Below, in pieces: positions 13,225-60,518 of a stretch of 64,000 bases of DNA (position 1 is its first letter; each line of letters opens with the position of its first letter). Both the position numbers and the translations under genes were made by a program. The notes below the pieces were generated by a model that did no database searches, was not told the DNA's origin, and saw only the letters and a list, made by a program, of their open reading frames with translations. Origin of the DNA: a virus; the IMG/VR virus record IMGVR_UViG_3300021495_000001, positions 18,536 to 82,535 of that record; one strand, written 5' to 3'.

Positions 13225-13226
13225 GA

Positions 13227-13388: not shown

Positions 13389-13391
13389 ACG

Positions 13392-13562: not shown

Positions 13563-13564
13563 AA

Positions 13565-14704: not shown

Positions 14705-14713
14705 GGTGGAAGG

Positions 14714-15664: not shown

Positions 15665-15670
15665 TAAATA

Positions 15671-36724: not shown

Positions 36725-36904
36725 ATGGCTTTCAAAACAGGGGATAAAGTAAAAATTATTCCATCAAAAGTTACCAAAGTATTAAAAATAAGAGGGCTAA
36801 TCGGAACAGTAAAACATGTAGGGGATGGGCAAGCAATTGTTAACATACCCAGTAAGGGGGATTACCCTTTATTGTTCAGTGAAATAAGAAAGGTGAGAAG
36901 GTAA
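36725..36904 (+). CDS. Small SH3/KOW-like protein, paralog family member
   Basis: 59 aa, below the cutoff. MAFKTGDKVKIIPSKVTKVLKIRGLIGTVKHVGDGQAIVNIPSKGDYPLLFSEIRKV. Confidence 0.4.
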   Translation: MAFKTGDKVKIIPSKVTKVLKIRGLIGTVKHVGDGQAIVNIPSKGDYPLLFSEIRKVRR

Positions 36905-37548
36905 TGGAGGAGATTACAACTGTTCGGAATAGACTAGAACAATACAAGGGAAAGAGACAACAACTGGAGCAGATGGTAGAGGAGGTCTCAAGTGAGCTGA
37001 AAGCCAGGAAAAGACTGTTGGACAGATATGAGCGGGCATTGGAGATAGTAAAAGTGGTGGGGTTGCAGACCCAGAAACAGCTTGAATATCATCTTGCTGA
37101 GCAGGTTAGTTTGGCTTTGGCTGCAGTCTTTGACTACCCGTATGAGTTCAAGGTTAGGTTTCAGGAGAAGCGGGGGAAAACTGAGGCAGAACTTCTACTG
37201 GCAAGAAATGGAATGGAAATACACTCCATGAAGTTTGTTGGGGGTGGAGTGAGGGATGTTGCATCACTGGGATTACGGGTGGCTTACTGGGCTATGAGGC
37301 AAGATAGAAAGACAAGGCCAGTGTTTTTACTGGATGAACCTTTTGCCCACCTGAAGGGTGAGGAGGCCAATTATAGGGCATTGGCTTTATTGCAGGAGAT
37401 GTCACAGAAGCTTGGTATCCAGATATTAATGGTGAGTGATGAGCGTGTTCCCCGTGAGGTTATTTCAGACACTGCTGACAGGGTGTTTGTGGTGGAGATG
37501 AGAAAAGGGGTTAGCAGGGTAAAGAAGGAGGGGAAGGAAGATGCCTAA
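36904..37548 (+). CDS. Rad50/SbcC-like ATPase, C-terminal half (signature, Walker B)
   Basis: Coiled-coil N-terminus, FVGGGVRDVASLGLRVAY (signature-like), PVFLLDEPFAHL (Walker B/D-loop). Confidence 0.6.
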   Translation: MEEITTVRNRLEQYKGKRQQLEQMVEEVSSELKARKRLLDRYERALEIVKVVGLQTQKQLEYHLAEQVSLALAAVFDYPYEFKVRFQEKRGKTEAELLLARNGMEIHSMKFVGGGVRDVASLGLRVAYWAMRQDRKTRPVFLLDEPFAHLKGEEANYRALALLQEMSQKLGIQILMVSDERVPREVISDTADRVFVVEMRKGVSRVKKEGKEDA

Positions 37549-41471: not shown

Positions 41472-42092
41472 ATGGAAAAACATGACAAAGAGTATTTGGA
41501 GATGTGCCAAAAAGCAGGGGAGATACAGAAAATCTGGAAACCTAGAGCCGGAGATTGGGTTATAGACATCCAGAATGATAGTATATGTATAATCTGTTTA
41601 GTAAGGGGGGACAATCCTGATTATTTTTACCTTGTTGGTACTGACGCTGATAACCCAAACGATTTTTATCAACATTATATCTCAAAAGTTTATTGGCTCC
41701 CAACTCAAAGCCAATTACAAGAAATGTTAGGGATAGCTGATGATATAAAACCTGCCTTATTGGAGGAGATTACCCAGCTTAGGTATAAATATAATTATGA
41801 GAGTAGTAGTGGAGACGTCAGTCTGAATGGAGAAAAGTTGTGGTTAGTGTTTTATATGTGGAAGAAACATAGAAAATTATGGAATGTAGAAAAACAATGT
41901 TGGGAAAGGGAGATGTTCGATGAGGCTTTGAAGGAGAAAATTAGAAATGCTTTGTCTTATTGGGATGAGGATGAGAGCTTACTTTTGAATGATGGCGTGG
42001 AGGCAGTCATAAATGTTTTCAAAGAATGGATAAAAGAGAATAGGGGGGTGATTTTAAAGTGGCTAGATGAAAGGAGACTAACCGATGGCTAA
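41472..42092 (+). CDS. Hypothetical phage protein
   Basis: YWLPTQSQLQEML motif, which I recall from uncharacterised phage proteins (not checked). Confidence 0.4.
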   Translation: MEKHDKEYLEMCQKAGEIQKIWKPRAGDWVIDIQNDSICIICLVRGDNPDYFYLVGTDADNPNDFYQHYISKVYWLPTQSQLQEMLGIADDIKPALLEEITQLRYKYNYESSSGDVSLNGEKLWLVFYMWKKHRKLWNVEKQCWEREMFDEALKEKIRNALSYWDEDESLLLNDGVEAVINVFKEWIKENRGVILKWLDERRLTDG

Positions 42093-42249
42093 AAGAAAGA
42101 GAAAAGCTAGAGAAATAAGATATTATTATACAGGGGAAGATGAGCATAAAGTTTATCGTGATCGTGCAATTATAAATGCACTTGGAAAGGCTCTTAAAGA
42201 GTGGGTGAGGGAAAGTAAAAAAGGCAGTAAAGGGGAGGATAGTAAATGA
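42085..42249 (+). CDS. Small basic protein (54 aa)
   Basis: MAKRKRKAREIRYYYTGEDEHKVYRDRAIINAL; ATGA overlap with the next gene. Confidence 0.3.
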   Translation: MAKRKRKAREIRYYYTGEDEHKVYRDRAIINALGKALKEWVRESKKGSKGEDSK

Positions 42250-42533
42250 ATACACTTTGTCTTTTTAAAGTAACAGTTAAGGGGTTTTGTGGTAAGCGAT
42301 ACAAAACTGTGTATGTAATATCTGATAATTTGGATGATGCTTATCAAACTTATAGGAATTTTTTGGATAATCAAGACTTGGGATTTGAACATGCAGGAGA
42401 TAGGGAATTAGAGAAAATAGAGTTGGTAGCTAAACTTTACAAAGAAGCTGAAAGCGAATGTAAAATGTTATTTATATCAAATAGAATTAGTGAAAAGTTA
42501 TGTGAAAGGGGCAAACTATGGGAAACAAGGTAA
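42246..42533 (+). CDS. Hypothetical protein
   Basis: Collinear, tightly packed upstream of the csf1-like gene. Confidence 0.4.
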   Translation: MNTLCLFKVTVKGFCGKRYKTVYVISDNLDDAYQTYRNFLDNQDLGFEHAGDRELEKIELVAKLYKEAESECKMLFISNRISEKLCERGKLWETR

Positions 42534-42742
42534 ATCAGACAAAACCAGATAAAGAGTATTGGTTAATGATTGCTGGCCAAGTTCATTCAATTATTGCCTT
42601 GGTTCGTAGCTCTATTAAATTGGAAGATGTAGAGAGATTAAACCGTTTCTTGATGACTTATGAGGCAATAGCTTTGTTTAAAGAGGAATATCCCAAATTG
42701 GTAACGAGAGTGCGAATAATAGAGAATGCATTTAAGTGGTAA
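42518..42742 (+). CDS. Hypothetical protein
   Basis: Collinear ORF. Confidence 0.4.
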   Translation: MGNKVNQTKPDKEYWLMIAGQVHSIIALVRSSIKLEDVERLNRFLMTYEAIALFKEEYPKLVTRVRIIENAFKW

Positions 42743-42748
42743 AGGGCT

Positions 42749-43393
42749 ATGGGGGCGGATAAGGCTAAAGCTATAACCCTTTCTGAACTATGCACTCATA
42801 TTTTCCCTCCTCCCAAGGGAAGAAAAGGAAAGGGGGTTTGTGTTTGGTGTGGGAAGGAAGTAGATGAGATGTTTGATATCAAGGTTTCTGATAATTTTAT
42901 GGGGTGGTGTTATTTTTCATTTGGGGATTGTATGTGTAGGTATTGTTATGCTTTTTTCTCTAAACAGTCCTTCAGGAAAAAGAGTTGGGTGGCTACAAAG
43001 AGTGGAGTGAAATTCATAAAAAGAGATGAGATTATGGAGCTTCTCCTCCAACCACCAAAGCCCCCTTGGTTTCTATATATTACAAAAACAGGCCAAAAGC
43101 AGGGGTGGTTGCACTGTATTCATAAGGTGAACTTGTCTTCTTTCTCCTTCACAGTTGCCTTTGAGCCCTTTGATTTTCCAGTTCAGACAAACATCTCTGA
43201 GGTTCATGCTTTACATAATCTTCTATCTTTTCTGAGAGAGAGAAAAGTGACAAAAACAGAACTTTTAACTGGTGTGTTTAAGATGAAGACTTACGAGAGG
43301 GCAATAAAAGAGGGGTATGAAGAGGAGTTAAAAAGAGCTAAAAAATATGCAGGAAAAGGAATATGGGAGGTAATGTGTCATGTCATCAAATGA
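42749..43393 (+). CDS. csf1: Type IV CRISPR-associated large subunit Csf1-like (Cas8-like)
   Basis: N-terminal zinc-finger cysteines CVWCGKE ... CMCRYCY. PPKPPWFLYITKTGQKQGW resembles my recollection of a Csf1 PPxPPF segment. It is first in a csf1-cas11-csf2-csf3 order. Confidence 0.6.
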   Translation: MGADKAKAITLSELCTHIFPPPKGRKGKGVCVWCGKEVDEMFDIKVSDNFMGWCYFSFGDCMCRYCYAFFSKQSFRKKSWVATKSGVKFIKRDEIMELLLQPPKPPWFLYITKTGQKQGWLHCIHKVNLSSFSFTVAFEPFDFPVQTNISEVHALHNLLSFLRERKVTKTELLTGVFKMKTYERAIKEGYEEELKRAKKYAGKGIWEVMCHVIK

Positions 43394-43787
43394 TAAAGAG
43401 AGTAAACTGGTTGTCTTTTTAGCACTTGTTTACATGCGTGTTCCATGGGGGAAGATGCAGATGGGGAAGAATGTTTGGGATGTGTTTAACCACCGTGTCC
43501 GTGCTGCATCTAGAAAAGGGACTATGCAAGCATTTGCAAGCAAGTTATGTAACTATTTTGGGATACAGTCTCTGCCCCCAGAGGCTGTGCTCATTCTAGA
43601 TGACCTTATCCCTGATCAAGAAAGAGTGCTAAACCTGCTATATATGGAACATATACCAATTTGCATGAGAGCAGTAATAAAAGCAAAAGAGATTAGAGAA
43701 GCTAAAAAAGAGAAAGAGAAAGAGAAACAACAGAAAAAGGAGGAAAAGAATGGGGAAAAATTACAAAACGGTCTGTGGACTGTGTGA
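43380..43787 (+). CDS. cas11: Cas11-like small subunit (type IV-B)
   Basis: 135 aa. Called mainly from its position between the csf1-like and csf2-like genes, as in type IV-B loci. No motif-level evidence. Confidence 0.45.
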   Translation: MSSNDKESKLVVFLALVYMRVPWGKMQMGKNVWDVFNHRVRAASRKGTMQAFASKLCNYFGIQSLPPEAVLILDDLIPDQERVLNLLYMEHIPICMRAVIKAKEIREAKKEKEKEKQQKKEEKNGEKLQNGLWTV

Positions 43788-44583
43788 GGCAAAAACCCCG
43801 ATTTTTCATGGAGGAAATGAAAAAACAGGGAGCACCCCTATCCTTCGCACCATTATGATTTGGCATGAAGGGGGTGGGGTTAGCATCCCCTACATCCATG
43901 GGAATGCAGTGCGGGGAAAGCTGAGACGGATGATTATGAAAGATATGCTAGAGGTGGTTGGATACTCTGTGACAAACAAAAAGTTGCACCACTCTCTGTT
44001 TTCTGGTGGAGTGTTAGAGGGAACTGAAAAAACAAGTGGAGTTCTAGATTTAACATTAAGGAAAGAAATTGTGGACATGCTCCCCCCTATTTCTCTATTT
44101 GGCTGTGGGATAGGAAACCAGTTGATACAAGGGAAGCTTGTGGTTGGACATATGTGGCCTATTTGCAAGGAGTATAAAGCCTTTCTTCCTACTAGCTTCC
44201 AAGGTGACCAGCGGGCGCAGCAGCCTGTTCGTGTCTTTACAGATGAGTCTTTTATCACTAGGAGGGATGATTTGCGAGAGGAGAGGGAAAAAGATAAGCA
44301 GGCTGTCCAGATGAAAGTAGATTATGAGTGCTTTATCCCTGGGACAGCCTTTTACCATGAGTTCAAACTCCTTTTTACAAACGCAGTGGAGGAAAGTTGC
44401 TTTTCACGCTTGCTATCCCTGTGGAAAATGTATCCAAACGTTGGTGGCCGTGGGAGTTCAGGTGATGGGTTGTTAATTTTAAACTATGACTGGGAAGGCA
44501 AAGATGATGTATATATGGAACATTTAAGCACAAAGGCCAAAGAGATTGCATCCTTGTTAAAAAAACTGGAGGAAATGTTGTGA
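43750..44583 (+). CDS. csf2: Csf2 (Cas7-family RAMP backbone subunit, type IV)
   Basis: TPIFHGGNEKTG...IPYIHGNAVRGKLRR, ISLFGCGIGNQLIQGKLVVGHMWPIC: RAMP/Cas7 hallmarks. Confidence 0.7.
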   Translation: MGKNYKTVCGLCEAKTPIFHGGNEKTGSTPILRTIMIWHEGGGVSIPYIHGNAVRGKLRRMIMKDMLEVVGYSVTNKKLHHSLFSGGVLEGTEKTSGVLDLTLRKEIVDMLPPISLFGCGIGNQLIQGKLVVGHMWPICKEYKAFLPTSFQGDQRAQQPVRVFTDESFITRRDDLREEREKDKQAVQMKVDYECFIPGTAFYHEFKLLFTNAVEESCFSRLLSLWKMYPNVGGRGSSGDGLLILNYDWEGKDDVYMEHLSTKAKEIASLLKKLEEML

Positions 44584-45374
44584 TGATCCCCGTCTTATAT
44601 GAAAAGCAAAGAGAGGAGATAGAGTATTTTGTTTCAAAGATAGAAAGGCAGAAACAGAAACAAAGGTTAAATAGATTTACCAATTTTAAAATCACTTTTA
44701 CTCTCTCTTCTCCAATCTGCATCACCACCCCATGGCTTAATTTTGACAGCCTTATAGGGCATCTTATGACTATGGAGAGTTTGGATAGGGAGTATTTTGT
44801 TACGGATAAAAAAATTAACTTAGCAAAATATATGTCAGGTGGGGGGTTACCGTATGGGTCTTTATGGCATGAAGAAGAAGGGCTGGCTGTTCCAACAGTG
44901 AGTGTTGGATATTCAGAAGAACCTTTTGAACCTCGTGTAGAGGTTTTGTATAAGCGGTTTGAGGGGTATCATGCATCATTCAAAGGAAAGATAAGGGTTG
45001 GCTCTGGACATTTCCGTAACTTTATGATTCGTCATATTTATATCCCCATAAAAAAGGTTATTTTCTTTGTGAAAGGGGATAAAGAGTTTATCTACAACTT
45101 ACTAAAGAGAAATCTATTTGCCCTTGGCAATGATGTTCGTGTAGGTTATGGGTTTATAAAAAATATGTCAGTCAGAGATATGGAGAAGGATTACTCTATT
45201 GTGATGAATGGAAAAGCTATGCGTCCGCTCCCTGTGGAATTCTGCAAGAGTTATGAAGAAGTGGCCCCTCTTCCATACAAACCACCGTATTGGGAGAAAA
45301 GAAATGTGCGGATGTGTGTACCCCCTTTTACTAGGTGTGAGTTGAAAGAAAAGTGGAGGAAGTATTACGGGTGA
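44580..45374 (+). CDS. csf3: Csf3 (Cas5-family RAMP, type IV)
   Basis: FKITFTLSSPICITTPWLNFDSLIGHL N-terminal RAMP strand/helix; G-rich loop LGNDVRVGYGFI near the C-terminus. Confidence 0.65.
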   Translation: MMIPVLYEKQREEIEYFVSKIERQKQKQRLNRFTNFKITFTLSSPICITTPWLNFDSLIGHLMTMESLDREYFVTDKKINLAKYMSGGGLPYGSLWHEEEGLAVPTVSVGYSEEPFEPRVEVLYKRFEGYHASFKGKIRVGSGHFRNFMIRHIYIPIKKVIFFVKGDKEFIYNLLKRNLFALGNDVRVGYGFIKNMSVRDMEKDYSIVMNGKAMRPLPVEFCKSYEEVAPLPYKPPYWEKRNVRMCVPPFTRCELKEKWRKYYG

Positions 45375-45823
45375 TTAAGATTGAGGTTGCTTACCACCGT
45401 ATGAACTCTGATGGAAACTTGACAAGATGCTACCGTACAATTTGGTCTCTTTGTGGTGCAACAACAATCCATCTAGTTTCATCCAAGGCACAACTGCGGA
45501 AACGATATTTATTTTCTGCAAAGGATAAGCACTCAATTATACGATATAGAGATTTGTCTTCCTTTTTCATGGCAAATAAAGGCAAACAGACAATTATTTT
45601 TGAGGTAAATGGTAAGAAGGGATTATCTGAATTTAAGAAGGATTGTATTAAAGAAGACGTAGTTGTCCTACTTTTTGGTGGAGAGACAGATACAATCCCG
45701 CTCAGGTCATATCAAGAGTATGACAGGTACAGAGTTGAGACTACAAATAGGCTTTGTTTGATCAATGATGTTGTTACAGGGATTGCCTTATATACAGTGA
45801 TGACAAGGTTAAGGGATGGATAA
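45371..45823 (+). CDS. SPOUT (TrmH/TrmL-like) methyltransferase-like protein
   Basis: GTGA overlap with the csf3 stop (the track start at 45353 is also possible). IKIEVAYHRMNSDGNLTRCYRTIWSLCGATTIHLV resembles the TrmL N-terminus. VVLLFGGETDTIPL ... NRLCLINDVVTGIALYTV resembles the SPOUT knot motifs (LLFGxExxG ... SLNxxxAxxIxLYE). Confidence 0.4.
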   Translation: MIKIEVAYHRMNSDGNLTRCYRTIWSLCGATTIHLVSSKAQLRKRYLFSAKDKHSIIRYRDLSSFFMANKGKQTIIFEVNGKKGLSEFKKDCIKEDVVVLLFGGETDTIPLRSYQEYDRYRVETTNRLCLINDVVTGIALYTVMTRLRDG

Positions 45824-46544
45824 AAAGTGGGTAGAAACATTTAAGCTGTGGGCAAAAATGGGGAAGTATAAACAACGTATTAGGGAAGCAAGGGAAAACA
45901 TTAGGGCAGTCTTGGAAAAGGAGAAATGTATTGTCCTTTACAGTGGGGGGAAGGACAGTTCAGTGGTGCTCCATCTATGTATGCAGATTAACCGAAGAAC
46001 ACCTGTTTATTTTTTTAATGCTGGTTATGATTATGGAAGTAAGCAAATGAAAATGCCAACTAAAGTCATGGCTGAGATTATTGAGAATGCTAAATCCTAT
46101 GGTGCAAAGCACATTTATATCCGTGGGGGAAAGGGGCCTTCATCAAAACAATTCTTTGGGCATCTTGTTGAACTTAAGAGGAAATTAGGCGTGGAGGTGG
46201 AACTGCTGGGGATACGAAAAGAAGAGAGTGTAACAAGGAAAATAAGGGCAAGGCGAGATGGGCTGGTACAATGTGAAGGAGGGAGGAGAGTTTGTTTCCC
46301 AATCAAGGATTTATCTTGGATGGACGTGTGGGCGTATATAGTGTCAAATGGTATGCCTTATCTTTCCATCTATGACAAGTATGCAAAAGTTCTTGGCTGG
46401 GATAAAGCACGGTTTACAATGTTGTTTTCTAGAGGGCTAATGCACATGGGGGGCTTATATTATGTAGATGGCGTGCTGTTCCCTGAATTTCGCAATTTAA
46501 CAACAGAGCAGTCTCCTGTTTCCAGAATATTTAAAAAAGACTAG
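45816..46544 (+). CDS. cysH: CysH-like PAPS reductase-family PP-loop ATPase (type IV-B associated)
   Basis: PP-loop VLYSGGKDSSVVLHL; LLGIRKEESVTRK; WMDVWAYIVSNGMPYLSIYDK. Confidence 0.75.
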   Translation: MDKKWVETFKLWAKMGKYKQRIREARENIRAVLEKEKCIVLYSGGKDSSVVLHLCMQINRRTPVYFFNAGYDYGSKQMKMPTKVMAEIIENAKSYGAKHIYIRGGKGPSSKQFFGHLVELKRKLGVEVELLGIRKEESVTRKIRARRDGLVQCEGGRRVCFPIKDLSWMDVWAYIVSNGMPYLSIYDKYAKVLGWDKARFTMLFSRGLMHMGGLYYVDGVLFPEFRNLTTEQSPVSRIFKKD

Positions 46545-46557: not shown

Positions 46558-47163
46558 ATGATTAAAGTTTACGCATTAAGTGGAAGCCACGGTATTGGTA
46601 AGACAATGACATTTGTCTATCTTGAAAAGCTATTGCCACCTGAAAAGTTTGCTTTTGTTGGCGAGTTTGCAGACAGCATTTTAAAACAGATGGACATTAG
46701 ACAAAATTGGAAGGAAAAAATCTTCACTAACCGCCCAGCCTACAATTACTTTGAAAACGCATTGGATTTCTGCACTATTAGTAGCTATTTGGTCCATAAA
46801 GATAAAATAATTGTGGCAGATAGAAGTATTGTTGATAATTGTGCCTATCGGTTATTAGCCAAGCTGCCATTGAATACAATCTCTTTGTTAGACTTTCATG
46901 GAGTGAACTTATATACCTTCTTTATGCGGTCTAAAAAGAGAGAAGATGCTGAAGTAACTGAAGCAGTTAGAAAAACATTGGTGCGGTTTAAATTGCCTTA
47001 TGAGGAAGTGGATATAAAAGAAGCTAAAATACCTAAAAATGCAGATGACCATGCTGTAATGAATATAATTAACCACCAAGCAAAAGAAACGGCTAGGATA
47101 ATTGCTGATAAAATTTTGGAGATGGAGAAAAGCAATGTCCCAAACCAATTTCAAAGTCGGTGA
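46558..47163 (+). CDS. P-loop nucleoside/nucleotide kinase-like NTPase
   Basis: Walker A LSGSHGIGKTM; ADRSIVDNCAY resembles the dNK-family (D/E)RS..SD..F motif. Confidence 0.45.
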   Translation: MIKVYALSGSHGIGKTMTFVYLEKLLPPEKFAFVGEFADSILKQMDIRQNWKEKIFTNRPAYNYFENALDFCTISSYLVHKDKIIVADRSIVDNCAYRLLAKLPLNTISLLDFHGVNLYTFFMRSKKREDAEVTEAVRKTLVRFKLPYEEVDIKEAKIPKNADDHAVMNIINHQAKETARIIADKILEMEKSNVPNQFQSR

Positions 47164-47463: not shown

Positions 47464-47491
47464 TTGATACGGCAAGCAGTGGAATTATATT
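47464..47491 (+). promoter_or_regulatory. Candidate sigma70-type promoter for the lysis gene
   Basis: TTGATA (47464-69), 16-bp spacer, TATATT (47486-91), in a 190-bp AT-rich gap. Confidence 0.3.
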
Positions 47492-47523
47492 CAAGTAGAG
47501 CGGGGAAACAAAAGGAGGCATTT

Positions 47524-48081
47524 ATGAAGAAGTATACTATCGTTATTGACCCTGGCCATGGTGGTAAAGACTCAGGGGCGGTTTATGCAGAATATAAAGA
47601 GAAAGACATAGTTTTGCCTATTGCATTATATTTAGGTGGGTTTTTATCTTATACTCCTCATGAAGTTAATCTGAAAATAAATTGTGTCTATACCAGAACA
47701 GCTGATGTGTATGTGCCACTAAGAGATAGGGTTTTCATTGCAAATAGCATAAAAGCAGATGCCTTTGTTAGCATTCATGTTAATGCCTCTCCTAAACATA
47801 ATGCTAGAGGAGAGGAAATTTGGATTTACCCTGGTTCAATTAAAAGTGCTAAGCTAGCAGACAGTATTGCTACATTTATTGATGAAATCGTCCCTGGCAA
47901 ATTCAGAGGTATTAAAGAAGGGAATTTTTATGTGTTAAGAAAAACTAAAATGCCTGCTGTTTTAATTGAAGTTGGTTTCATAGATAATCCTATTACACCA
48001 TTGCATTCCTATCATACTCAAATTAGGGCGGCTTTTGTTATTGCTGCTGGGATTAAAAAGTATTTGTTGAGTATTGAATAA
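47524..48081 (+). CDS. N-acetylmuramoyl-L-alanine amidase (Amidase_3) endolysin
   Basis: VIDPGHGGKDSGA, SIHVNA, VLIEVGFIDN. ATG at 47524 after AAAGGAGG. Confidence 0.85.
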   Translation: MKKYTIVIDPGHGGKDSGAVYAEYKEKDIVLPIALYLGGFLSYTPHEVNLKINCVYTRTADVYVPLRDRVFIANSIKADAFVSIHVNASPKHNARGEEIWIYPGSIKSAKLADSIATFIDEIVPGKFRGIKEGNFYVLRKTKMPAVLIEVGFIDNPITPLHSYHTQIRAAFVIAAGIKKYLLSIE

Positions 48082-53556: not shown

Positions 53557-53599
53557 CCCCTCCATATTATTATACTCATTTTACCCTCTTTCCCTAATG
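53557..53599 (-). promoter_or_regulatory. Conserved phage promoter-like motif, copy 5 (minus strand)
   Basis: The reverse complement reads CATTAGGGAAAGAGGGTAAAATGAGTATAATAATATGGAGGGG. It begins on the CAT TAG end of the 944-aa tail gene. Confidence 0.5.
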
Positions 53600-56428
53600 C
53601 CCTTCTAATGCTTCTATCTTTTTACTTAATTGCCTTATAGCACCTAACAACAGGCTTAAAGTAGCTGTCATGTCTAATGCTTCTATTCTTACCGTTACCT
53701 TCTCATCATCCTCATAAGTTATTTCTGCATTTTTGGATAAAATACTTTGTAAATGCTCTTTAAAATCTTCTTCATCCTTTTTTAAATCACTGTATTTTAC
53801 TGTTTTGATGAACTTAGGTAAAGTTTTATAGTCTGCTTTGGGTAATTCTTTTGGGGTATATTTATCTTTGCTAACTTTAATATTTTTGATTACCTCAAGT
53901 GGGCTTGCTATTTCTTCTACCATTCCAAGTGAGCAAACATCATTTGGGACACAATAAAAAACTTCATTCCACGCATAAGAAGCAGTCCCATTATTATAGC
54001 TGGCATGTGAGCTAGGGCGAAATGTTCTATAACATAGAATTTCATCACGAATTGTTAATCTAGCTTCAGCATTCGCTTTAATGTAAACCTCACCTCCAGT
54101 GCCAGCATATAAAGTCAAATTATCATTAGCTTCAACATATATATCACCTGTGTTATAAGCCAAAGAATAAACACGGCCCTGCAACACTCCATCTGCATAA
54201 AAACGGACTTGGCAAAGAGTATTTAATTCTCCTATATTCACATAGTCACTGTCAGTTCCAAAATGCCCTTCCCCTCTAAAGAATGGGTTACCACTTCTTG
54301 GGATATCCACCATTTTCGTGCCTGATTGATACATCCGTAAGCCGCTATAATCTAGAATACATCCAGTAGAAGGATTAGACCCATAATCCAACTGCGTAGT
54401 AACAATATATCCTGCATTGATTTTTGTAGCCGATATATCAGAAATCTTGACATTGGTAATGGTAGCATCTGTTATATAAGCACCATGAATACTAGAGCCA
54501 CTCTGTGCAACCAATTTGCCTTGAATAGTAAAGGTTGAGCCATCCCAATACAGATAATGACTGCTAGAACCAACCCTAAAATTTCCCCCAGGATACCAGT
54601 AATTATAGCTGTCAAATACTAAGTCCCCTTTGATTGTCAATGTTGTGCCATTCCATGTAATCTTTTTTCCACTAGAGCTACCCACAGAAAACAATGGAGT
54701 GCCACTATCATTTGCACCTAGGAAAAATCCTGTGCCTGTATCAAAAGCAGTTTGCCCTGAACGGATAAAACCACCAGCATCAGCAATAAAACCACCAGTA
54801 ACTCTAACTGTGCCCTCTACAAACAAGGTAGCTTGGTCTCTATCCCAGCGTAACCCATAACCATAACCTGAAGGCAAGTTTTCCCATGCAGAGGGGACGG
54901 TGGTATAAATGGTTATATCACTAAACTGGGTTAAATCATCCCAATCATCTAGCTCAATGGAGTATCTTGTAGCAATGACTTTAACCGATAAATCATTGTT
55001 TATCTCTACACTATCTATGACTGCTTTATACTCACCACCATAATTATCTCCATTTATTGTGATTACATCCCCTGGTTCAAGTGCTAATAACTCACTTCTG
55101 CCAGTAAAAGATATTTGAGCAACTTTAAAGAACTTACGCTGAAACACTAAGCAAGCTAGCTTTTGGACATGAACTGCATTTTGAACCCAAGGAATAAATA
55201 CTGTTTCATCACTAATATAATCGGTGGTAGAGCCTTTACCTGGAACTAGGGCTTTAAGTATATTGTCCTGTGGCTCGTCCTCTTTTTGCCATGCTACATA
55301 TCCACTATCTGATAGCTCCTCTGATAGTTTAGAATAATCAAAACTCTCTTTAACCACTAATGAGGTAGTAATTGTTTTTTGGCTTGTTTTAGATAGGACA
55401 GATAGCACTAGTTTATCTCTAACCAGTATTCTAGCATGGCACATATTTAGTAGAGTGGATAGTATAGACTGTCTGGTTGATTTCTTCCAAAAACCACCAT
55501 TCCACTCTAAGCCCCAACTAGTAAAGGTAGAGGCTGCACTGGTAAATGAATCATCATCTATCTCATCATCAGGCACACCAAAATCTTTTAGTATCTCTTT
55601 TATAATGTTTGCTGGGTTGGTAGTAGTGTTGTAGCTAAATTTGGTGGGCATATCCAGTATCTTTTGCCCACTAATCCATACGCCACAAGCATCTGGAGTG
55701 CCATCTAAATTAGAATCAGCTATGATAGGCTGAAATACCCGCCAAGAGTTACCAAACTGGTCTGTTTTTGTGGATTGAGTAAAAGTATAGCTAGAGGAAG
55801 ACCACGACTGTTTTATACCCCATTCAGCAGGGGTATGAACTTCGGCAATTGTATAAGTATTATCAGTAGAACCAAGCAAGTAATATCTATCCCCATCTAT
55901 TTCCACAGGCCGTAAAGGGATGTATGCAGTGCCAAAACATACAGGCACGCAAAGGTCTTCATCCTCATAATAATTATCTGGGAATAAGGCTTTTACATAT
56001 TTGGTATTAGGATATGCACCTTCTAAATACTTTTGTAAGAAATCTTCACACTCTAAAGTAATTGACTGATAACTACCATAAGCCCGTATAATATTAAACT
56101 TCCATTTGGCAATCAGAGTATCATCTATCAATAAATAAATTAAAACACTGCCATCTACAAAATTGTCTGCCGTGTAGGTGTTGTCTTTATTCCCTATTTC
56201 AATTCTCACTTCATTAGGTGTGATGATACCTGCTTCTGATTGATTTCGGTTCAAAGTGATACCAGGAAAATCTACTATATTAAAAGAGTAAGTGGTTGAA
56301 TTGTATGTGTATTCTCTAGTTGACCAGTGGTATGAATTATCATACTTATCCGTTATATCAAACAGCCAAATGGCCGATTTATAAGTTTTACCTAGTAAAT
56401 AATTTTGTGTGCTGTCTAAACTTCTCAT
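53594..56428 (-). CDS. Tail hub / host-specificity protein
   Basis: 944 aa, last large gene of the tail module. The N-terminal ~150 aa pattern (AIWLFDITDKYDNSYHWSTREYTYNSTTY) resembles GTA/phage hub N-domains. The C-terminal part may be a chaperone-like segment. Confidence 0.55.
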   Translation of the reverse strand: MRSLDSTQNYLLGKTYKSAIWLFDITDKYDNSYHWSTREYTYNSTTYSFNIVDFPGITLNRNQSEAGIITPNEVRIEIGNKDNTYTADNFVDGSVLIYLLIDDTLIAKWKFNIIRAYGSYQSITLECEDFLQKYLEGAYPNTKYVKALFPDNYYEDEDLCVPVCFGTAYIPLRPVEIDGDRYYLLGSTDNTYTIAEVHTPAEWGIKQSWSSSSYTFTQSTKTDQFGNSWRVFQPIIADSNLDGTPDACGVWISGQKILDMPTKFSYNTTTNPANIIKEILKDFGVPDDEIDDDSFTSAASTFTSWGLEWNGGFWKKSTRQSILSTLLNMCHARILVRDKLVLSVLSKTSQKTITTSLVVKESFDYSKLSEELSDSGYVAWQKEDEPQDNILKALVPGKGSTTDYISDETVFIPWVQNAVHVQKLACLVFQRKFFKVAQISFTGRSELLALEPGDVITINGDNYGGEYKAVIDSVEINNDLSVKVIATRYSIELDDWDDLTQFSDITIYTTVPSAWENLPSGYGYGLRWDRDQATLFVEGTVRVTGGFIADAGGFIRSGQTAFDTGTGFFLGANDSGTPLFSVGSSSGKKITWNGTTLTIKGDLVFDSYNYWYPGGNFRVGSSSHYLYWDGSTFTIQGKLVAQSGSSIHGAYITDATITNVKISDISATKINAGYIVTTQLDYGSNPSTGCILDYSGLRMYQSGTKMVDIPRSGNPFFRGEGHFGTDSDYVNIGELNTLCQVRFYADGVLQGRVYSLAYNTGDIYVEANDNLTLYAGTGGEVYIKANAEARLTIRDEILCYRTFRPSSHASYNNGTASYAWNEVFYCVPNDVCSLGMVEEIASPLEVIKNIKVSKDKYTPKELPKADYKTLPKFIKTVKYSDLKKDEEDFKEHLQSILSKNAEITYEDDEKVTVRIEALDMTATLSLLLGAIRQLSKKIEALEGH

Positions 56429-58495
56429 CTATCCCTCTGAATAATTACCTAAAACTCTCAATCTTACTGGGTCAATTGAGTATAATCCTCCTGCTGCTAT
56501 TGTCCTTTTCATTTTTGTATCAAACCGCACTACATAGTCATGGCTGTCTTTAGGATTTTGCCATTTAAAAGTCTTTGTCTTCTCCACCCCTAAATAAAAA
56601 CTAAACAATTCATTACTCTCACTTTTTGTCAATGCAGGCCACTTTAAGGTAACATAAAATTTTACATCCCCTAGCTCTATTCGTTTCTCATCAAACCCAC
56701 TACCTAGCAATATTTTCTGCCAAGGTTCGCCATCTTCCACCATTATCTCTTGTGGTTCTATGGGCAAAGAGTAATCATAATCAGGTGTTAAAGAATCCAG
56801 ATAGTTCCACATCTCACCTGTCATCCTCTCGTAAGCACCAATGTCAACCCCTTCACCTCTTGGAACAGAGTTACCTTCATAATCTTCCGTCAATCCAACA
56901 CCTATCCCTGCATCAATACAGGGGGAAGAAAGTTGGAGATGGAAGTCATAATTATCTGCATCTATAAAGAGTGGGTTTTGACATAAAGAATGAGAGTCTT
57001 GTGAATGGTCATAAGACCAATAACCCGACTCACTCCCAAGAATATGGTCAAAGTCATATCCCTCACCTGCCCAACATATACAGTTTTTATCGCCTGAATC
57101 TTCATAAAAAAGATTATAGTCTGATTCTAGATTAAAAGTTCCATTGGGAATATAACGCAAATCATATCCAGCAGAATCTTGAAAAAGACCTATTATATTA
57201 TTTTTAAATGAGAAAGTCAGTGTAGAATCTGATGACACGTAAATACGAGCATTTGCTGTTGGGCCTGGTCCTGCACCATTGTTCTTCCAAATTACATTAT
57301 TAAATACTTTAATGTTTGAGGTTAGCCCGCTGGAAACAGTTATTATCAAACCTCCCCACGGACCAGAACTTTCCTTGCTCCCTATTCCATTGTTATAAAT
57401 AATATTGTAATAAATCTCATAATCTCCATCTACACTTTCAAGTGAAATTCCTCTACCATCACAATTATAGATTTTATTATATCTAATTATAATATCAGTT
57501 ATATTCCCACCATCAGCTCCCCCTGAGCATGTAACAATTCCCTTTGCTCTTGTGCTTTTGTCTGAATAATCACATCCAATATCATGGATTATATTATGTT
57601 CAATTGTAATATCGTGAGGCTCTTGAGAACCCTCGGAGCCATAACTAGACAAAGCAATTCCTTCCTTATCCTGCGGATTGTTACCATTTAAAATACCAGC
57701 CTTTTTCCCAATATGATGAATATGGTTATATGCCACCGTAATATTTGAACAATCAGCACCAATAGCAATTGCTCGCTCATCACAATATGTAATCTCATTA
57801 CTCTTAACAGTGCAATTATAGCAACTATTTAGACTTACTCCCAAATATCCTCCATATAAAATATCACAATTGGAAATCTCACAGGAATTAGAATCTTCAA
57901 AAACTACTACACTTCTCAGATACAAAGAGTCTGGGTCATATGGTCGTTCATAGGCATTCCCCACCTCAAATCTTAAATTTTCCACCTTTATATAAGATTT
58001 TCCATTAATGTAGAGTGGGTGCTTTCTAGCTCCTAATTCTACAACATGGTCGTCAGGAGTGCCTGATGACGGTTTATAATAAATATAATCCGAATCATCT
58101 CCACCCCATTGTCCTGAACTCAAATCTGAGCCATCTGTTGGGCTTACTTTTTGTAATTTTTGACCATCTTCCAATAAAATTCTGTAATGTAATGAGTTAC
58201 CGCTAATTTGCCAAACACCATTTTCATCTGGTCCTGTCCAACCTGTCTCAATATCCGCCCCTGTTATCTTAGGTTTATCACCACTTCCATAAGCACCAAA
58301 AGTAATAAGATTCCCATTTGAACCAGATGAAGGAACGGTTAAAGTTTCTCGCCACACCTCCCCTCTTTTGAAATAAATACTATCCCCAGCACTGAAACTA
58401 GTAGAGTTTACCTTAGATACAGTCTTCCAAGGCTGGGTTTGCGTTCCAGGGTTACTGTCATTACCCAAAGTCGCATCTACATAATAGCTAGCCAT
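56429..58495 (-). CDS. Right-handed beta-helix (pectate-lyase-fold) tailspike/depolymerase with C-terminal Dit-like domain
   Basis: Repeated NxxIxxN/ISNC/IHHI-type rungs (CEISNCDILYGG, CTVKSNEITYCD, ITVAYNHIHHIG, IIRYNKIYNCDG). The C-terminal ~110 aa are homologous to the ORF at 60033..60518. Confidence 0.65.
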   Translation of the reverse strand: MASYYVDATLGNDSNPGTQTQPWKTVSKVNSTSFSAGDSIYFKRGEVWRETLTVPSSGSNGNLITFGAYGSGDKPKITGADIETGWTGPDENGVWQISGNSLHYRILLEDGQKLQKVSPTDGSDLSSGQWGGDDSDYIYYKPSSGTPDDHVVELGARKHPLYINGKSYIKVENLRFEVGNAYERPYDPDSLYLRSVVVFEDSNSCEISNCDILYGGYLGVSLNSCYNCTVKSNEITYCDERAIAIGADCSNITVAYNHIHHIGKKAGILNGNNPQDKEGIALSSYGSEGSQEPHDITIEHNIIHDIGCDYSDKSTRAKGIVTCSGGADGGNITDIIIRYNKIYNCDGRGISLESVDGDYEIYYNIIYNNGIGSKESSGPWGGLIITVSSGLTSNIKVFNNVIWKNNGAGPGPTANARIYVSSDSTLTFSFKNNIIGLFQDSAGYDLRYIPNGTFNLESDYNLFYEDSGDKNCICWAGEGYDFDHILGSESGYWSYDHSQDSHSLCQNPLFIDADNYDFHLQLSSPCIDAGIGVGLTEDYEGNSVPRGEGVDIGAYERMTGEMWNYLDSLTPDYDYSLPIEPQEIMVEDGEPWQKILLGSGFDEKRIELGDVKFYVTLKWPALTKSESNELFSFYLGVEKTKTFKWQNPKDSHDYVVRFDTKMKRTIAAGGLYSIDPVRLRVLGNYSEG

Positions 58496-58739
58496 TTTTC
58501 TTTTCTTCTAGCCATTTATTTATTTCCTCTTGAGTCACTAACCTTTTATCCTTCAGAAGGTTAATCAAAGCAGTTATCTCCGCCAATAAATCTTGCAATT
58601 GTGCTGTTCTAGTATTCAATTCTTGCTCCACTGCTTTTAATGTTTCAGTCTTAACTCTTCCAATTTCTTCCTCAAGCAAAATAATCCGTTCCAAAAGCTG
58701 TTTTCTGGTTGGTTTCTTAAACTTAATAAATCTACCCAT
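58488..58739 (-). CDS. Coiled-coil protein
   Basis: 83 aa, heptad-rich. Confidence 0.4.
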   Translation of the reverse strand: MGRFIKFKKPTRKQLLERIILLEEEIGRVKTETLKAVEQELNTRTAQLQDLLAEITALINLLKDKRLVTQEEINKWLEEKKNG

Positions 58740-58748
58740 TCAAAGCTC

Positions 58749-60020
58749 CTAAGTTAAATCTACATATCTCCAATTTCCATTTACATAGGCATAAAGCCTT
58801 TGCCCTGGATTACTTGCATTAGTATCTGCTGCCAAAATAATCAACCCACTAGCACCAGTTGGAGGAGTATAATTTGTAAAGTTCCCTCCATAATCATCTA
58901 CATCCTCTCTTACTCTAACACCTTCGGTAAAATAACCTTTTCCAGACGCATGGATTGCCTCATCAGGGTCCGCCACTCCTATGCTAACACTACCCTTTAA
59001 AAATGTCTTTATAATACTATCATTACCTAATACTATTGTATTACTTCCTTTTCCTGTTACATCATATCCAATTACTATTTCATTAGTAACGCCGTCAGCA
59101 GACGCTTTGGTGTTAGAGCCAATAAAAATACATTGGTTAGAGGTTTGATTTGGGTCAGTGCCATTGGCAATATAGTATCCAGCAGAATATCCAATTGCTA
59201 TATTATCATCTCCAGTAGTATTAGCACGAAGAGCATTAGTCCCAACTGCAAAATTACGCCCACCAGAGGTATTACTGTATAGAGCATAAGGGCCAATCGC
59301 CATATTATGAAAATCATTTGAGTTATAGAGTGCATAGGGGCCAACTGCTACATTATTGCCACCCGCAGAATTGGTATAAAGAGCATAAGGTCCAACTGCT
59401 ACATTACGATTACCAATTGAGTTAGCATGGAGAGCATAAGGGCCAACTGCTGCATTATGGTGAGCAATGGTAACGCTGTTTAATGCTCCATATCCCACAC
59501 CAAGATTATAACTGCCATGGTAAGTTTCTGTCGCTGTTTCCCCCATAGTAAAATTCCCAGCACCTTCTCCTACAAAGAGGTTATATCCATCAGTGGTCAC
59601 AGTCCCATTATTACCATAATTAAAGTTATGAAAAAACGCAGTCCCTTCTTTGTATATAATCCCATACTGATTGGCATGAGTGGTGTTCTCTAGATTTATA
59701 CTACCAGTCATATCAAGTTGATAATCAGGGCTTTTACCCAGCCCTAATCTATTATTTGTCCTATCTATATATAACGGTTCAAGAAAACTAAGTCTAAGCA
59801 ACCACCGCCCTGTGTTTGAGCCTACATCATCAGGTGCAATTACATCTGGAGAGCTTTCTGAGGATGAACTACTAGCATCAAAGACATGAACATAGATATA
59901 ATCATCTGTCACAGTGAATGCTAACTCGCCGTCTTGCAATGAATTATATGGCAAAGCATCAAGAGCACCTGAAGCCCCGCCAGTTAACGCAACACATGAA
60001 TATACTCGTTTATCTGCCAT
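58749..60020 (-). CDS. Tail fibre protein with YadA-head/Hep_Hag-like repeats
   Basis: NAAVGPYALHANSIGNRNVAVGPYALYTNSAGGNNVAVGPYALYNSNDFHNMAIGPYALYSNTSGGRNFAVGTNALRAN. Confidence 0.6.
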   Translation of the reverse strand: MADKRVYSCVALTGGASGALDALPYNSLQDGELAFTVTDDYIYVHVFDASSSSSESSPDVIAPDDVGSNTGRWLLRLSFLEPLYIDRTNNRLGLGKSPDYQLDMTGSINLENTTHANQYGIIYKEGTAFFHNFNYGNNGTVTTDGYNLFVGEGAGNFTMGETATETYHGSYNLGVGYGALNSVTIAHHNAAVGPYALHANSIGNRNVAVGPYALYTNSAGGNNVAVGPYALYNSNDFHNMAIGPYALYSNTSGGRNFAVGTNALRANTTGDDNIAIGYSAGYYIANGTDPNQTSNQCIFIGSNTKASADGVTNEIVIGYDVTGKGSNTIVLGNDSIIKTFLKGSVSIGVADPDEAIHASGKGYFTEGVRVREDVDDYGGNFTNYTPPTGASGLIILAADTNASNPGQRLYAYVNGNWRYVDLT

Positions 60021-60032
60021 ACCCTAACCTCT

Positions 60033-60518
60033 TCAATCTAAATCTAATGCGTTCCACCCCAACACTCGTAAATCGATTGAAAAACTATCAGTATAAAATC
60101 CTCTTTTAAGGCTATTCTCTAAATCTGTATCAAACCGCACTACATAAGTGCAGTTATCTGTGGGATGTGTCCATTTGAATGAGTTAATCCTGCCATTAGC
60201 CTTATTTTCATTAAAATAAAAATCAAACAGCGTTGCAATCTGGTTTTTACTTAGCTGAGGGAAGTTCAGTGTGACTATAAAAAATGGCTCACTCATAGCC
60301 ACCCTTTCCTCATCATTGTCTTCTGTTTCAACTATCCTACACTCTGTATCTATATTCTCAGACAAACTCTCCACGGGCAAATCAGGAAACTCTGCATCAT
60401 AATCTGGTTCTTTGTGAGGTAAATAATCAGCCATTTTACCTGAAATATTACACCACTGCCATCCATCACCCCATGCCCAACCATCTGCCCATTGCCAAGA
60501 GAAAAACGACTTAGCCAC
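60033..60518 (-). CDS. Distal tail protein-like (DUF2460/GTA Dit-type) protein
   Basis: Immediately downstream of the tape measure. FFIVTLNFPQLSKNQIATLFDFYF...FKWTHPTDNCTYVVRFDT. Confidence 0.5.
   Translation of the reverse strand: MAKSFFSWQWADGWAWGDGWQWCNISGKMADYLPHKEPDYDAEFPDLPVESLSENIDTECRIVETEDNDEERVAMSEPFFIVTLNFPQLSKNQIATLFDFYFNENKANGRINSFKWTHPTDNCTYVVRFDTDLENSLKRGFYTDSFSIDLRVLGWNALDLD

Follow-up and report, generated by a model that had tools for sequence, protein, structure and literature searches.

A mobile type IV-B cassette of a tailed phage that may pair RNA capture with RNA modification

What might a type IV-B CRISPR-Cas complex do in a phage when no CRISPR array accompanies it? 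The question is raised by positions 42749-46544 of the window (the whole 64-kb stretch of viral DNA analysed here), which an initial annotation had read as a cassette of five genes. We find six translationally coupled genes on the plus strand, in the order csf1, cas11, csf2, csf3, SPOUT and cysH-like, of which the fifth, a 150-aa open reading frame at 45371-45823 and the most informative of them, had been overlooked. On our reading, to which we assign a probability of roughly 0.55, this is a mobile island of a tailed phage that pairs RNA capture with RNA modification.

An array-less type IV-B cassette

The five genes named initially all lie where they had been placed on the plus strand, with the motifs quoted for them, and their family assignments held up in profile searches for Csf, Cas11 and CysH proteins, with E-values of 1e-34 to 1e-72 from CRISPR-typing HMMs (PADLOC/CCTyper) and a PAPS_reduct match above the gathering score. 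The type IV large subunit Csf1 (42749-43393, 214 aa; PADLOC Csf1_0_IV 3.7e-39, NCBIfam cas8u_csf1 8.6e-11) carries a CxxC...CxxC zinc finger, whose cysteines C31, C34, C63 and C66 do not vary among 37 homologues. Its gene overlaps by 14 nt that of the small subunit Cas11 (43380-43787, 135 aa; PADLOC Cas11_0_IV 2.2e-34), a mark of subtype IV-B, which has a K/E-rich tail and shows 44-61% identity across IMG/VR loci. Csf2, the Cas7 backbone RAMP (43750-44583, 277 aa; PADLOC typeIV_Cas7 1.1e-71, Csf2_0_IV 6.2e-67), has 26 invariant columns across 39 homologues and matches, among PDB sequences, 11fs 'Cas7c' (1.2e-15) and the IV-B Csf2 of 7jhy (1e-6). Csf3, the Cas5 RAMP (44583-45374, 263 aa; PADLOC Csf3_0_IV 2.5e-44, NCBIfam cas5_csf3 5.3e-17), begins at an ATG at 44583 that overlaps the csf2 stop codon (TGATG), the same start as in the gene call of a related locus, L040; its dN/dS is 0.06 against locus L035. 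The NCBIfam matches of Csf1, Csf2 and Csf3 are consistent with these assignments but remain under the equivalog cut-offs. The locus has the signature large subunit Csf1 and the Csf2 (Cas7) and Csf3 (Cas5) RAMPs expected of type IV.

The absences noted initially are also borne out. No CRISPR-like array was detected in the 64 kb by TRF, by a search for spaced direct repeats or by Rfam at the gathering score and at E<=1, nor was there a single repeat unit or Rfam CRISPR-DR match, and tblastn with the Cas6 proteins of sister loci as queries revealed no cas6 in the window. A PADLOC scan of 20 open reading frames, some around the cassette and others elsewhere in the window, gave no match to Cas1, Cas2, Cas3 or Cas10; as in type IV systems, the locus thus has neither an adaptation module nor an effector nuclease. 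No DinG/RecD helicase was found in the 64-kb window, whose helicases are limited to DnaB and an SNF2-type protein (11581-13224); the lack of DinG/RecD, cas6 and a CRISPR array is that of subtype IV-B. Judged from its sequence, the locus is almost certainly an array-less type IV-B cassette in a phage. Two small open reading frames at 42246-42742, have no homologue in any of more than 50 related loci, and the suggestion that they are part of the unit finds no support. A comparison of flanks across loci gave no conserved non-coding element bordering the cassettes.

A mobile island in a tailed phage

The window encodes a large terminase, tape measure, tail and tail-spike proteins, together with a DNA polymerase, clamp, clamp loader, primase, DnaB, UvsX, gp32 and an endolysin. 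As first proposed, the cassette is embedded in a phage genome, and its carrier, a tailed phage with its own replisome, has a genome of 82 kb or more. A contig of 82.5 kb is recorded with an identical CysH, so that at least 18 kb of genome lie outside the window; the earlier statement that lysogeny genes are missing stands for the scanned open reading frames of the window and is restricted to these.

In the related phage L001, the same cassette sits between DnaB and DNA polymerase, and nucleotide homology between L034 and L037/L038 ends at the cassette borders. Judging from these comparisons, the cassette is a mobile island. Its presence in a phage is real and less unusual than initially thought: unannotated IV-B cassettes of the same kind turned up in 29 IMG/VR contigs and in SPI1, a cultured phage of Skermania. 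In reviews, 'some phages and prophages' are already named among the carriers of type IV (PMC11656645), and two viruses with IV-B and cysH have been published, a Methanoperedens virus (bioRxiv 10.1101/2023.08.02.551345) and Fuxivirus (PMC10848311). With virus-borne IV-B already published and further copies found, phage location alone is not new.

A predicted minimal SPOUT methyltransferase and a CysH-like protein without its cysteine

The overlooked gene starts with a GTG that overlaps the csf3 stop codon (GTGA) and itself overlaps cysH by 8 nt. Its 150-aa product is a predicted minimal TrmL-like SPOUT methyltransferase, as indicated by Pfam, a family profile and AF2/Foldseek modelling. Both its Pfam SpoU_methylase score (23.2 bits, 8e-5, against a cut-off of 29.7) and its NCBIfam TrmL score (16 bits, against 190.6) fall under the curated cut-offs, which marks it as a divergent relative and rules out a TrmL orthologue. 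The family profile nevertheless matches TrmL 7e3t over its full length (5e-6), and the best Foldseek matches of the AF2 model (pLDDT 86.7) are CspR, TrmL and YibK (TM 0.72-0.75, probability 1.0). The predicted alpha/beta fold and the three motifs (N..R, GxE and N) are those of the SPOUT class; residues N22, R28, T29, G109, G110, E111 and N138 are invariant, and the gene evolves at a dN/dS of 0.09-0.13.

Like TrmL, CspR and YibK, which are minimal SPOUT tRNA C/U34 2'-O-methyltransferases, the protein consists of one SPOUT domain of ~150 aa without any extension, conserves the motif-1 Asn and Arg, the motif-2 G-G-E and the motif-3 Asn, and superposes on them in its predicted fold. Unlike orthologues of these enzymes, it shares only 13-22% identity with them, and an exhaustive profile search with the cassette SPOUT family did not reach canonical TrmL. 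On the strength of its motifs and predicted fold, we take it to be a divergent minimal TrmL-like SPOUT RNA 2'-O-methyltransferase. As the gene occurs almost only inside IV-B cassettes, its substrate is probably not the tRNA-Leu wobble position.

The last gene (45816-46544, plus strand) encodes a 242-aa PP-loop protein of the CasCysH type (PAPS_reduct 55 bits against a Pfam cut-off of 22.5, 1.3e-14). Its SGGKDS motif is invariant across 31 homologues, none of its cysteines is conserved among them, and its C-terminal 80 residues, where we looked for an ECGLH-type motif, contain no cysteine at all. The missing catalytic C-terminal cysteine rules out a bona fide PAPS/APS (sulfonucleotide) reductase; an SGGxDS/T PP-motif with that cysteine absent is what defines CasCysH (PMC8175902), and both features are found here. 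Foldseek relates the AF2 model (pLDDT 89.8) to the PAPS domain of FMN adenylyltransferase/FAD synthase, CysH, CysD, LarE and TtuA. The likeness to FMN adenylyltransferase and ATP sulfurylase, with the PP-loop kept and no redox cysteine, points to a probable ATP-driven adenylylation; the predicted adenylyltransferase-like fold and the SGGKDS motif without a conserved cysteine agree with the AMPylation proposed for CasCysH by Taylor et al. (PMC8175902).

SPOUT and cysH travel together

The SPOUT family is small: a search of 1.84 billion representative proteins gave 10 matches at E<=1e-3. The gene directly adjoins the cysH-like gene of a IV-B cassette in 14 of the 15 contigs recovered, and comes between csf3 and cysH in some and follows cysH in others; a distant family member, L054, lies outside any cassette. 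Compared with the window, SPOUT-bearing loci share 46-69% identity in CysH but only 39-47% in Csf2, whereas loci without SPOUT share 46-63% in Csf2 and 33-40% in CysH. Against one locus (L033), dN is 0.70 for Csf3, 0.22 for SPOUT and 0.27 for CysH, and a 6-aa insertion with a ~12-aa deletion in CysH is present in 10 of 11 SPOUT-bearing loci versus 1 of 33 without SPOUT. These patterns indicate that SPOUT and cysH recombine as one unit, and SPOUT is very probably a true accessory coupled to CysH. The gene is absent from all 29 IMG/VR loci and all seven genome loci with a IV-B cassette; as most phage IV-B cassettes lack it, methylation is not the core activity of IV-B.

Six SPOUT-bearing loci also carry a gene for the RNA endonuclease Cas6 after cysH, and no array lies within 8-10 kb of these sister cassettes. 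In two other cassettes the SPOUT slot is occupied by a DPPW amino-methyltransferase, which might speak for DNA instead of RNA as the substrate. The SPOUT-CysH(-Cas6) variant of IV-B appears to be unreported.

Among characterized systems, the closest is the plasmid-borne IV-B of Mycobacterium sp. JS623 (PDB 7JHY; Zhou et al. 2021, PMC7937560), with which the window cassette shares the order csf1, cas11, csf2, csf3 and cysH-like, a detectably homologous Csf2 (although similarity is low, E 1e-6) and the lack of array, cas6, adaptation genes and nuclease. It differs by residing in a phage, by the SPOUT gene between csf3 and cysH, and by a CysH from a subclade with its own indels. Fuxivirus (PMC10848311), Mp_virus_41kb (bioRxiv 10.1101/2023.08.02.551345) and SPI1 (Orf40-44, KR011061) likewise hold csf1-cas11-csf2-csf3 and a cysH-like gene in a viral genome, and in SPI1, as in the window, the lysis genes lie ~2 kb downstream of the cassette. 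Unlike the window, however, none of the three has a SPOUT gene reported or seen, two are archaeal viruses, Fuxivirus has a mini-array, and the SPI1 Csf2 is only 32% identical to ours over half its length. Type IV-A (Csf with Cas6/Csf5, DinG and an array) shares the Csf1, Csf2 and Csf3 core, and Cas6 with the SPOUT-bearing sister cassettes, whereas the window cassette lacks DinG and an array and has Cas11, with CysH-like and SPOUT in place of the helicase.

Discussion

How could these six proteins work together? By extension from the Mycobacterium structure, in which the IV-B complex binds RNA (PMC7937560), Csf2 and Cas11 would polymerise on an RNA of ~55-60 nt, with Csf3 and Csf1 as caps. The filament would capture RNA or present it to the CysH-like and SPOUT proteins, two enzymes working as a pair. 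The former would probably spend ATP to adenylylate or otherwise activate some chemical group of the bound nucleic acid; the latter, which has no RNA-binding extension and belongs to a superfamily described in PMC9508554 as acting mainly on tRNA or rRNA, would probably methylate the same RNA on a ribose 2'-OH, with SAM as donor. The purpose is the least certain step: the RNA might be inactivated, protected or marked during infection, against host defences or rival mobile elements.

Other systems are built on similar lines. Box C/D RNPs carry out RNA-scaffolded 2'-O-methylation and bacterial Pnkp-Hen1 a protective 2'-O-methylation of RNA; the analogy, an RNA-binding scaffold with a ribose 2'-O-methyltransferase, is one of working only, as there is no homology and neither a guide RNA nor repair enzymes were identified in the cassette. 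We favour this RNA-modification mechanism tentatively, at somewhat less than even odds.

Of the functions suggested initially, the SPOUT gene lends support to RNA modification, and the cas6 of sister loci gives indirect support to crRNA capture. The latter idea, that the Csf filament non-specifically sequesters host crRNAs or small guide RNAs from host effectors while the enzymes are secondary, is a standing hypothesis in the literature (PMC7038947; PMC8175902) with an obvious motive for a phage. The Mycobacterium complex takes heterogeneous RNA of fixed length, yet Zhou et al. saw no crRNA enrichment (PMC7937560); a sister cas6 without a nearby array would fit the processing of host pre-crRNA, yet the window cassette has no cas6. 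Sequestration also leaves unexplained a near-universal CysH-like protein and its coupled SPOUT, both under purifying selection, and Pinilla-Redondo et al. deemed a five-protein Acr unlikely (PMC7038947). We consider it improbable, well behind the preferred reading.

Less probable still is that the complex borrows crRNAs from arrays of the host or of other phages to bind and silence competing phages or plasmids in the manner of type IV-A, with CysH and SPOUT as effectors on the target. Every subunit of a Cascade-like surveillance complex is present, six sister cassettes encode Cas6, Fuxivirus has its mini-array, and type IV-A acts through nuclease-free repression (PMC11656645); against this stand the lack of any array or repeat unit in the 64 kb, the missing helicase partner and the negative co-occurrence of IV-B with other CRISPR systems (PMC7937560).

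A DndC-like CysH acting on phage or host DNA, targeted by the Csf complex, would be an epigenetic marking system, and we regard this as rather remote. DndC is itself a member of the PAPS-reductase family, weak matches to DndC and BrxP appear with PADLOC, some cassettes have DPPW amino-methyltransferases and a further PAPS reductase within them or nearby, and Shmakov et al. drew N6-MTases beside IV-B loci. The cysteine needed for sulfur chemistry is nevertheless missing (our alignment; PMC8175902), the coupled partner is from a superfamily that PMC9508554 describes as mainly tRNA or rRNA modifiers, and the Csf backbone binds RNA.

That the cassette is a decaying, non-functional remnant of a plasmid, as its lack of array, cas6 and effector nuclease and its varying genome position among related phages might suggest, can practically be set aside, given intact and coupled reading frames, purifying selection on its genes (dN/dS 0.06-0.13, no stop codons) and a csf1-cas11-csf2-csf3-cysH core that ~50 loci retain, 30-60% identical and with its catalytic and structural residues unchanged.

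The preferred reading, RNA capture paired with RNA modification, bears on type IV-B as a whole: a SPOUT methyltransferase beside CysH hints that these so far unexplained systems may chemically modify RNA.

A type IV-B cassette of six genes

The ORFs in window 42749-46544 lie on the + strand and overlap in series. PADLOC CRISPR-typing profiles assign csf1 (214 aa; Csf1_0_IV, 3.7e-39), cas11 (135 aa; Cas11_0_IV, 2.2e-34), csf2 (277 aa, 43750-44583; typeIV_Cas7, 1.1e-71; Csf2_0_IV, 6.2e-67) and csf3 (about 263-264 aa; Csf3_0_IV, 2.5e-44), the last two joined by a TGATG overlap. The final ORF encodes a 242-aa CysH-like protein with an SGGKDS motif and a match to Pfam PAPS_reduct above threshold (55 bits, 1.3e-14). 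NCBIfam profiles are concordant with PADLOC for the Csf proteins, with lower scores that fall under the equivalog cut-offs. The five type IV-B genes proposed for this interval in the initial annotation are thus all real, and the motifs it quoted are all found in the translations, but it overlooked a sixth, a 150-aa ORF between csf3 and cysH. When Csf2 was compared with the PDB by sequence, the best match was 'Cas7c' of 11fs, 11hc and 11hd (1.2e-15), the Mycobacterium IV-B Csf2 of 7jhy being more distant (1e-6). The cassette has all the testable defining features of subtype IV-B, and its six genes are translationally coupled and under purifying selection.

No CRISPR array, mini-array or single repeat was found in the 64 kb (TRF; spaced direct repeats; Rfam at gathering score and at E<=1), PADLOC returned no cas1, cas2, cas6, dinG or recD among the 20 window ORFs scanned, and tblastn with Cas6 proteins of sister loci detected no cas6 remnant in the window. 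The cassette is therefore without array, cas1/cas2, cas6 or dinG, as first described, and has no helicase or nuclease.

A promoter and terminator scan for the operon limits gave counts not above those of shuffled sequence, and the window contains no tRNA or tmRNA genes. No conserved non-coding RNA flanks the cassettes, as blastn homology among loci carrying the sixth gene does not extend past the outermost genes of the cassette. Two neighbouring candidates for membership were rejected. The small ORFs at 42246-42742, previously suggested as members, lack both a family match and homologues in the related loci; the downstream P-loop protein (46558-47163), with weak AAA_28 and thymidylate-kinase matches alone, occurs in no other cassette except that of a near-identical contig (L040). 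Separately, a 206-aa ORF with no family assigned (41472-42092) has homologues directly upstream of csf1 in one related locus (L022) and directly downstream of cysH in another (L050), and may be loosely associated with IV-B cassettes.

The sixth gene encodes a TrmL-like SPOUT protein

The additional gene starts with a GTG at 45371 that overlaps the csf3 stop (GTGA), and ends at 45823, 8 nt within cysH. It was also predicted by independent gene callers in L040 and shows a dN/dS of 0.09-0.13 against two homologues that are 85-87% identical: it is a real gene under selection. Its product, hereafter SPOUT, matches Pfam SpoU_methylase (8e-5, under the cut-off) and NCBIfam TrmL (0.008), and the profile of its family matches Mycoplasma TrmL (7e3t) over the full length (5e-6). 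With an AF2 model (pLDDT 86.7) as query, the first Foldseek matches were CspR, TrmL and YibK (probability 1.0, TM 0.72-0.75), which are tRNA C/U34 2'-O-methyltransferases. The invariant residues fall on the SpoU motifs, namely N22 and R28-T29 on motif 1, G109-G110-E111 on motif 2 and N138 on motif 3. R28 aligns with the motif-1 arginine of 7e3t and, from this alignment, is taken to be the counterpart of R20 of Escherichia coli TrmL, an arginine critically conserved across the SpoU family (PMC3763551).

The family is very small: among 5.8 billion clusters, word-indexed searching gave 9 proteins with a single-sequence query and 12 with a profile. Exhaustive HMM searching of 1.84 billion representatives gave 10 proteins at E<=1e-3, of which 6 passed E<=1e-10, and did not extend to canonical TrmL. 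Judging from the profile matches and the predicted structure, SPOUT is a divergent TrmL-like enzyme and not a TrmL orthologue.

SPOUT and cysH are linked

DNA context was obtained for 15 contigs besides the window, several of them near-duplicates, so that about 8 distinct lineages are represented. SPOUT directly adjoins a cysH-like gene in 14 of the 15, and this neighbour is a member of a csf cassette wherever the contig is long enough to tell. The order csf3-SPOUT-cysH occurs in the window and L040 and in L033, L034, L035, L036, L037, L038, L042, L051, L052 and L055, with SPOUT-cysH on the short contig L053, and cysH-SPOUT in L030, L031 and L032; gene order thus varies among lineages and adjacency is constant. 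The sole exception, L054, carries at 516-1920 the only family member found outside a IV-B cassette. This SPOUT is only 37% identical and is flanked by a class-I methyltransferase (Methyltransf_24) and a Cys-phosphatase-like ORF (Y_phosphatase2-like, HCxxGxxR motif), which may constitute another RNA-end modification set.

In loci with SPOUT, CysH is 46-69% identical to that of the window and Csf2 only 39-47%, whereas in the SPOUT-less loci (29 from IMG/VR and 7 from genomes) Csf2 reaches 46-63% and CysH 31-40%. Between the window and L033, dN is 0.70 for Csf3, 0.22 for SPOUT and 0.27 for CysH. These incongruent identities and dN values mark the cassette in the window as a recombinant, with an effector half from one lineage and a SPOUT and cysH half from another. 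Two CysH indels, an insertion of 6 residues (AGYDYxSxQxKxP, around residues 69-81 of the window protein) and the loss of about 12 others, are found in 10 of 11 loci with SPOUT versus 1 of 33 without it. Such incongruence, together with the co-varying indels and the variable order at fixed adjacency, indicates at the sequence level that SPOUT and cysH, whose linkage is clear, behave as a unit.

The CysH-like protein

Across 31 homologues, the CysH-like protein has invariant S43, G45, K46, D47 and S48 in the PP-loop, as well as H53, R134, E137, R141, D170, W172, Y174, Y186, D187 and R199, and no conserved cysteine, a pattern that agrees with the published definition of CasCysH (PMC8175902). For its AF2 model (pLDDT 89.8), the best superposition is with the FAD synthase/FMN adenylyltransferase PAPS domain, followed by CysH, CysD, LarE and TtuA. 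Several of these best structural matches move AMP from ATP onto an oxyanion. A redox function can be excluded, and the model makes an adenylyl-transfer or activation role plausible but unproven.

The phage that carries the cassette

The window encodes a large terminase (5861-7471, - strand), a tape-measure-like protein, a tail protein, a beta-helix fibre and a tail-spike (53594-64000, - strand), an Amidase_3 endolysin (47464-48081), a set of replication proteins (DnaD-like initiator, DnaB, primase, DNA polymerase, sliding clamp and clamp loader), and a gp32-like SSB, a UvsX-like recombinase, an SbcC-like exonuclease and a sigma factor. The absence of lysogeny genes noted in the initial annotation stands for integrases and repressors, with none among about 50 window ORFs scanned, but an IS110-like transposase ORF is present as the sole 'integration' match. 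A recorded contig of 82.5 kb carries an identical CysH, so that at least 18 kb of the genome lies outside the window and might hold lysogeny genes; the self-contained replisome suggests a virulent lifestyle. The window has no nucleotide similarity to deposited phages. The best TerL matches are to Cellulophaga phages (40%), and related cassettes occur in genomes of Bacillota, Calditrichia and Ignavibacteria and in one archaeal MAG, which together give no confident host.

Several other features of the window deserve mention. The IS110-family transposase-like ORF (15858-16736; phrog_4285, 5.7e-38; Pfam Transposase_20, 6e-5) sits within the replication module, between primase and initiator. Just upstream of the DnaD-like initiator gene (17086-18297), three 29-nt direct repeats (GAAGAAAACCATGGAT...GCCA) with 36-nt spacing (16902-17002) are candidate iterons or a candidate replication origin. 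Two ORFs are defence-system-like, a 547-aa SNF2 helicase resembling ZorD, DpdE and DrmD (11581-13224; 4e-56) and a 214-aa ORF matching PADLOC mad3 (mads_3; 36904-37548; 1.5e-9), and the tail-spike-like gene at 58749-60020 contains degenerate tandem units of 51 and 99 nt (59230-59475; 65-71% identity).

A mobile island with variable neighbours

The five-gene core is found in 29 IMG/VR viral contigs, nearly all of which have cysH directly after csf3. Cultured Caldicoprobacter algeriensis TH7C1 has it too, in a phage-like region (L045) with DnaD, DnaB, a DNA methyltransferase and a sigma factor, as do Thermoanaerobacter sp. A7A and several MAGs. In the related phages L001 and L002, whose DnaB, DNA polymerase, clamp loader and SSB are 40-57% identical to those of the window, the cassette sits between DnaB and polymerase, not beside lysis genes; between L034 and L037/L038, nucleotide homology starts in csf1 and stops at the end of cas6. 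From these different sites and sharp borders it follows that the cassette is a discrete island that can be transferred. Skermania phage SPI1 (KR011061, 32609-36242) has the only Csf2 relative in 50,697 deposited phage genomes. PADLOC identifies its Orf40-43 as Csf1, Cas11, Csf2 and Csf3, and its Orf44 is CysH-like; all five are annotated 'hypothetical' and located about 2 kb upstream of lysin and holin. IV-B cassettes are thus a recurrent mobile island of uncultivated phages that deposited phage genomes almost entirely lack (1 of 50,697 records).

A cas6 gene immediately follows cysH in L034, L037, L038, L042 and L051 (PADLOC, 4e-43 to 5e-66), and a further copy in L033 is truncated by the contig end. 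No array lies near these loci in the 8-10 kb fetched on each side, and cas6 was found in none of the SPOUT-less loci. In the window, the cas6 slot is occupied by the non-conserved P-loop kinase-like ORF. A DPPW-motif ORF of about 224 aa, amino-methyltransferase-like and weakly matching N6_N4_Mtase and Methyltransf_25, lies between csf3 and cysH in L021 (12148-12822) and L048 (5870-6487), and 2.5-3 kb downstream of cysH in L014, L015 and L045.

Individual loci show further peculiarities. L033 has a 242-aa DUF6009-like ORF (2913-3641; 1.8e-5) between csf2 and csf3 that is missing from L042, elsewhere 88-92% identical in nucleotide sequence. In L045, the cysH-like gene of the cassette is followed, about 1 kb downstream, by a second and larger member of the PAPS-reductase family (13093-14217; 374 aa; phrog_2302, 1.8e-91), and the SPOUT-bearing viral contig L052 encodes a TnpB-like ORF (14364-15704; OrfB_IS605 and Cas12f1-like_TNB) and queuosine-pathway-like genes (PTPS, radical SAM).

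Discussion

Type IV-B function was still to be characterised according to reviews up to December 2024 (PMC11656645), and specialists hold that the CysH-like partner contains the answer (PMC7038947, PMC8175902, PMC7937560). The initial annotation regarded a phage-borne IV-B system as noteworthy in itself; the cassette is truly in a phage, but type IV-B in viruses is already documented and not new. We found no published link between IV-B and a SPOUT, TrmL or SpoU methyltransferase in the open-access literature (subscription journals not covered), nor the architecture csf1-cas11-csf2-csf3-SPOUT-cysH(-cas6) in the searchable literature.

SPOUT adds a second enzyme beside CysH, from a superfamily of known chemistry, mostly tRNA and rRNA methylation. 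Like TrmL, it lacks an RNA-binding extension of its own, and therefore probably needs a partner for substrate selection. Going by the Mycobacterium sp. JS623 complex (7JHY), Csf2 and Cas11 would form a filament on RNA, and the enzyme families suggest that this filament could hand the RNA to two enzymes, an ATP user of the PP-loop type and a ribose methyltransferase dependent on SAM; we hypothesize that Csf-bound RNA might so become adenylylated and 2'-O-methylated. The Csf filament would then be an RNA-scaffolded, possibly RNA-guided, RNA-modification machine, a CRISPR-derived counterpart of box C/D RNPs in which RNA, bound or base-paired, reaches a CysH-like adenylyltransferase and a SPOUT 2'-O-methyltransferase, the phage's covalent marks disarming host guide RNAs or shielding phage or host RNAs from defence nucleases. 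We give this tentative reading a probability of roughly 20%. The purpose of such modification is speculative and might be to neutralise host guide RNAs, to guard RNA from 2'-OH-dependent nucleases or to mark transcripts. As most phage IV-B cassettes are missing the SPOUT gene, methylation would be an add-on to the CysH/Csf function and not the core activity, and SPOUT says more about the substrate, RNA, than about what the system does.

Other readings draw on parts of the same evidence. The Csf complex could act as an RNA sponge that sequesters guide RNAs, in keeping with heterogeneous RNA binding and with a Cas6 that comes without an array in sister cassettes; this possibility, which we likewise hold to be doubtful, leaves two conserved enzymes unexplained. 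Interference with borrowed crRNAs would make use of the full Cascade-like subunit set and of the sister cassettes' Cas6, but has no known compatible repeat, and we deem it unlikely. It is rather improbable that the CysH-like protein modifies DNA under Csf targeting: family relatives and the DNA methyltransferases neighbouring cassettes speak for such a role, which is weakened by the absent cysteine and the RNA-class partner. A decaying, non-functional passenger is contradicted by both dN/dS and conservation, and is highly improbable.

Adjacency, joint recombination and co-varying indels tie SPOUT firmly to CysH, often with the RNA endonuclease Cas6 following them, which turns the open IV-B question into a concrete hypothesis. 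Tractable material exists in the form of a compact six-gene operon, a cultured IV-B phage (Skermania phage SPI1) and a cultured bacterium with a prophage-like IV-B copy (C. algeriensis TH7C1). For the least understood of the CRISPR types, the SPOUT variant offers a concrete biochemical point of attack, through a mechanism that we infer. The RNA-modification reading, if true, would give a biochemical activity to type IV-B, the only CRISPR type whose function is still to be found.
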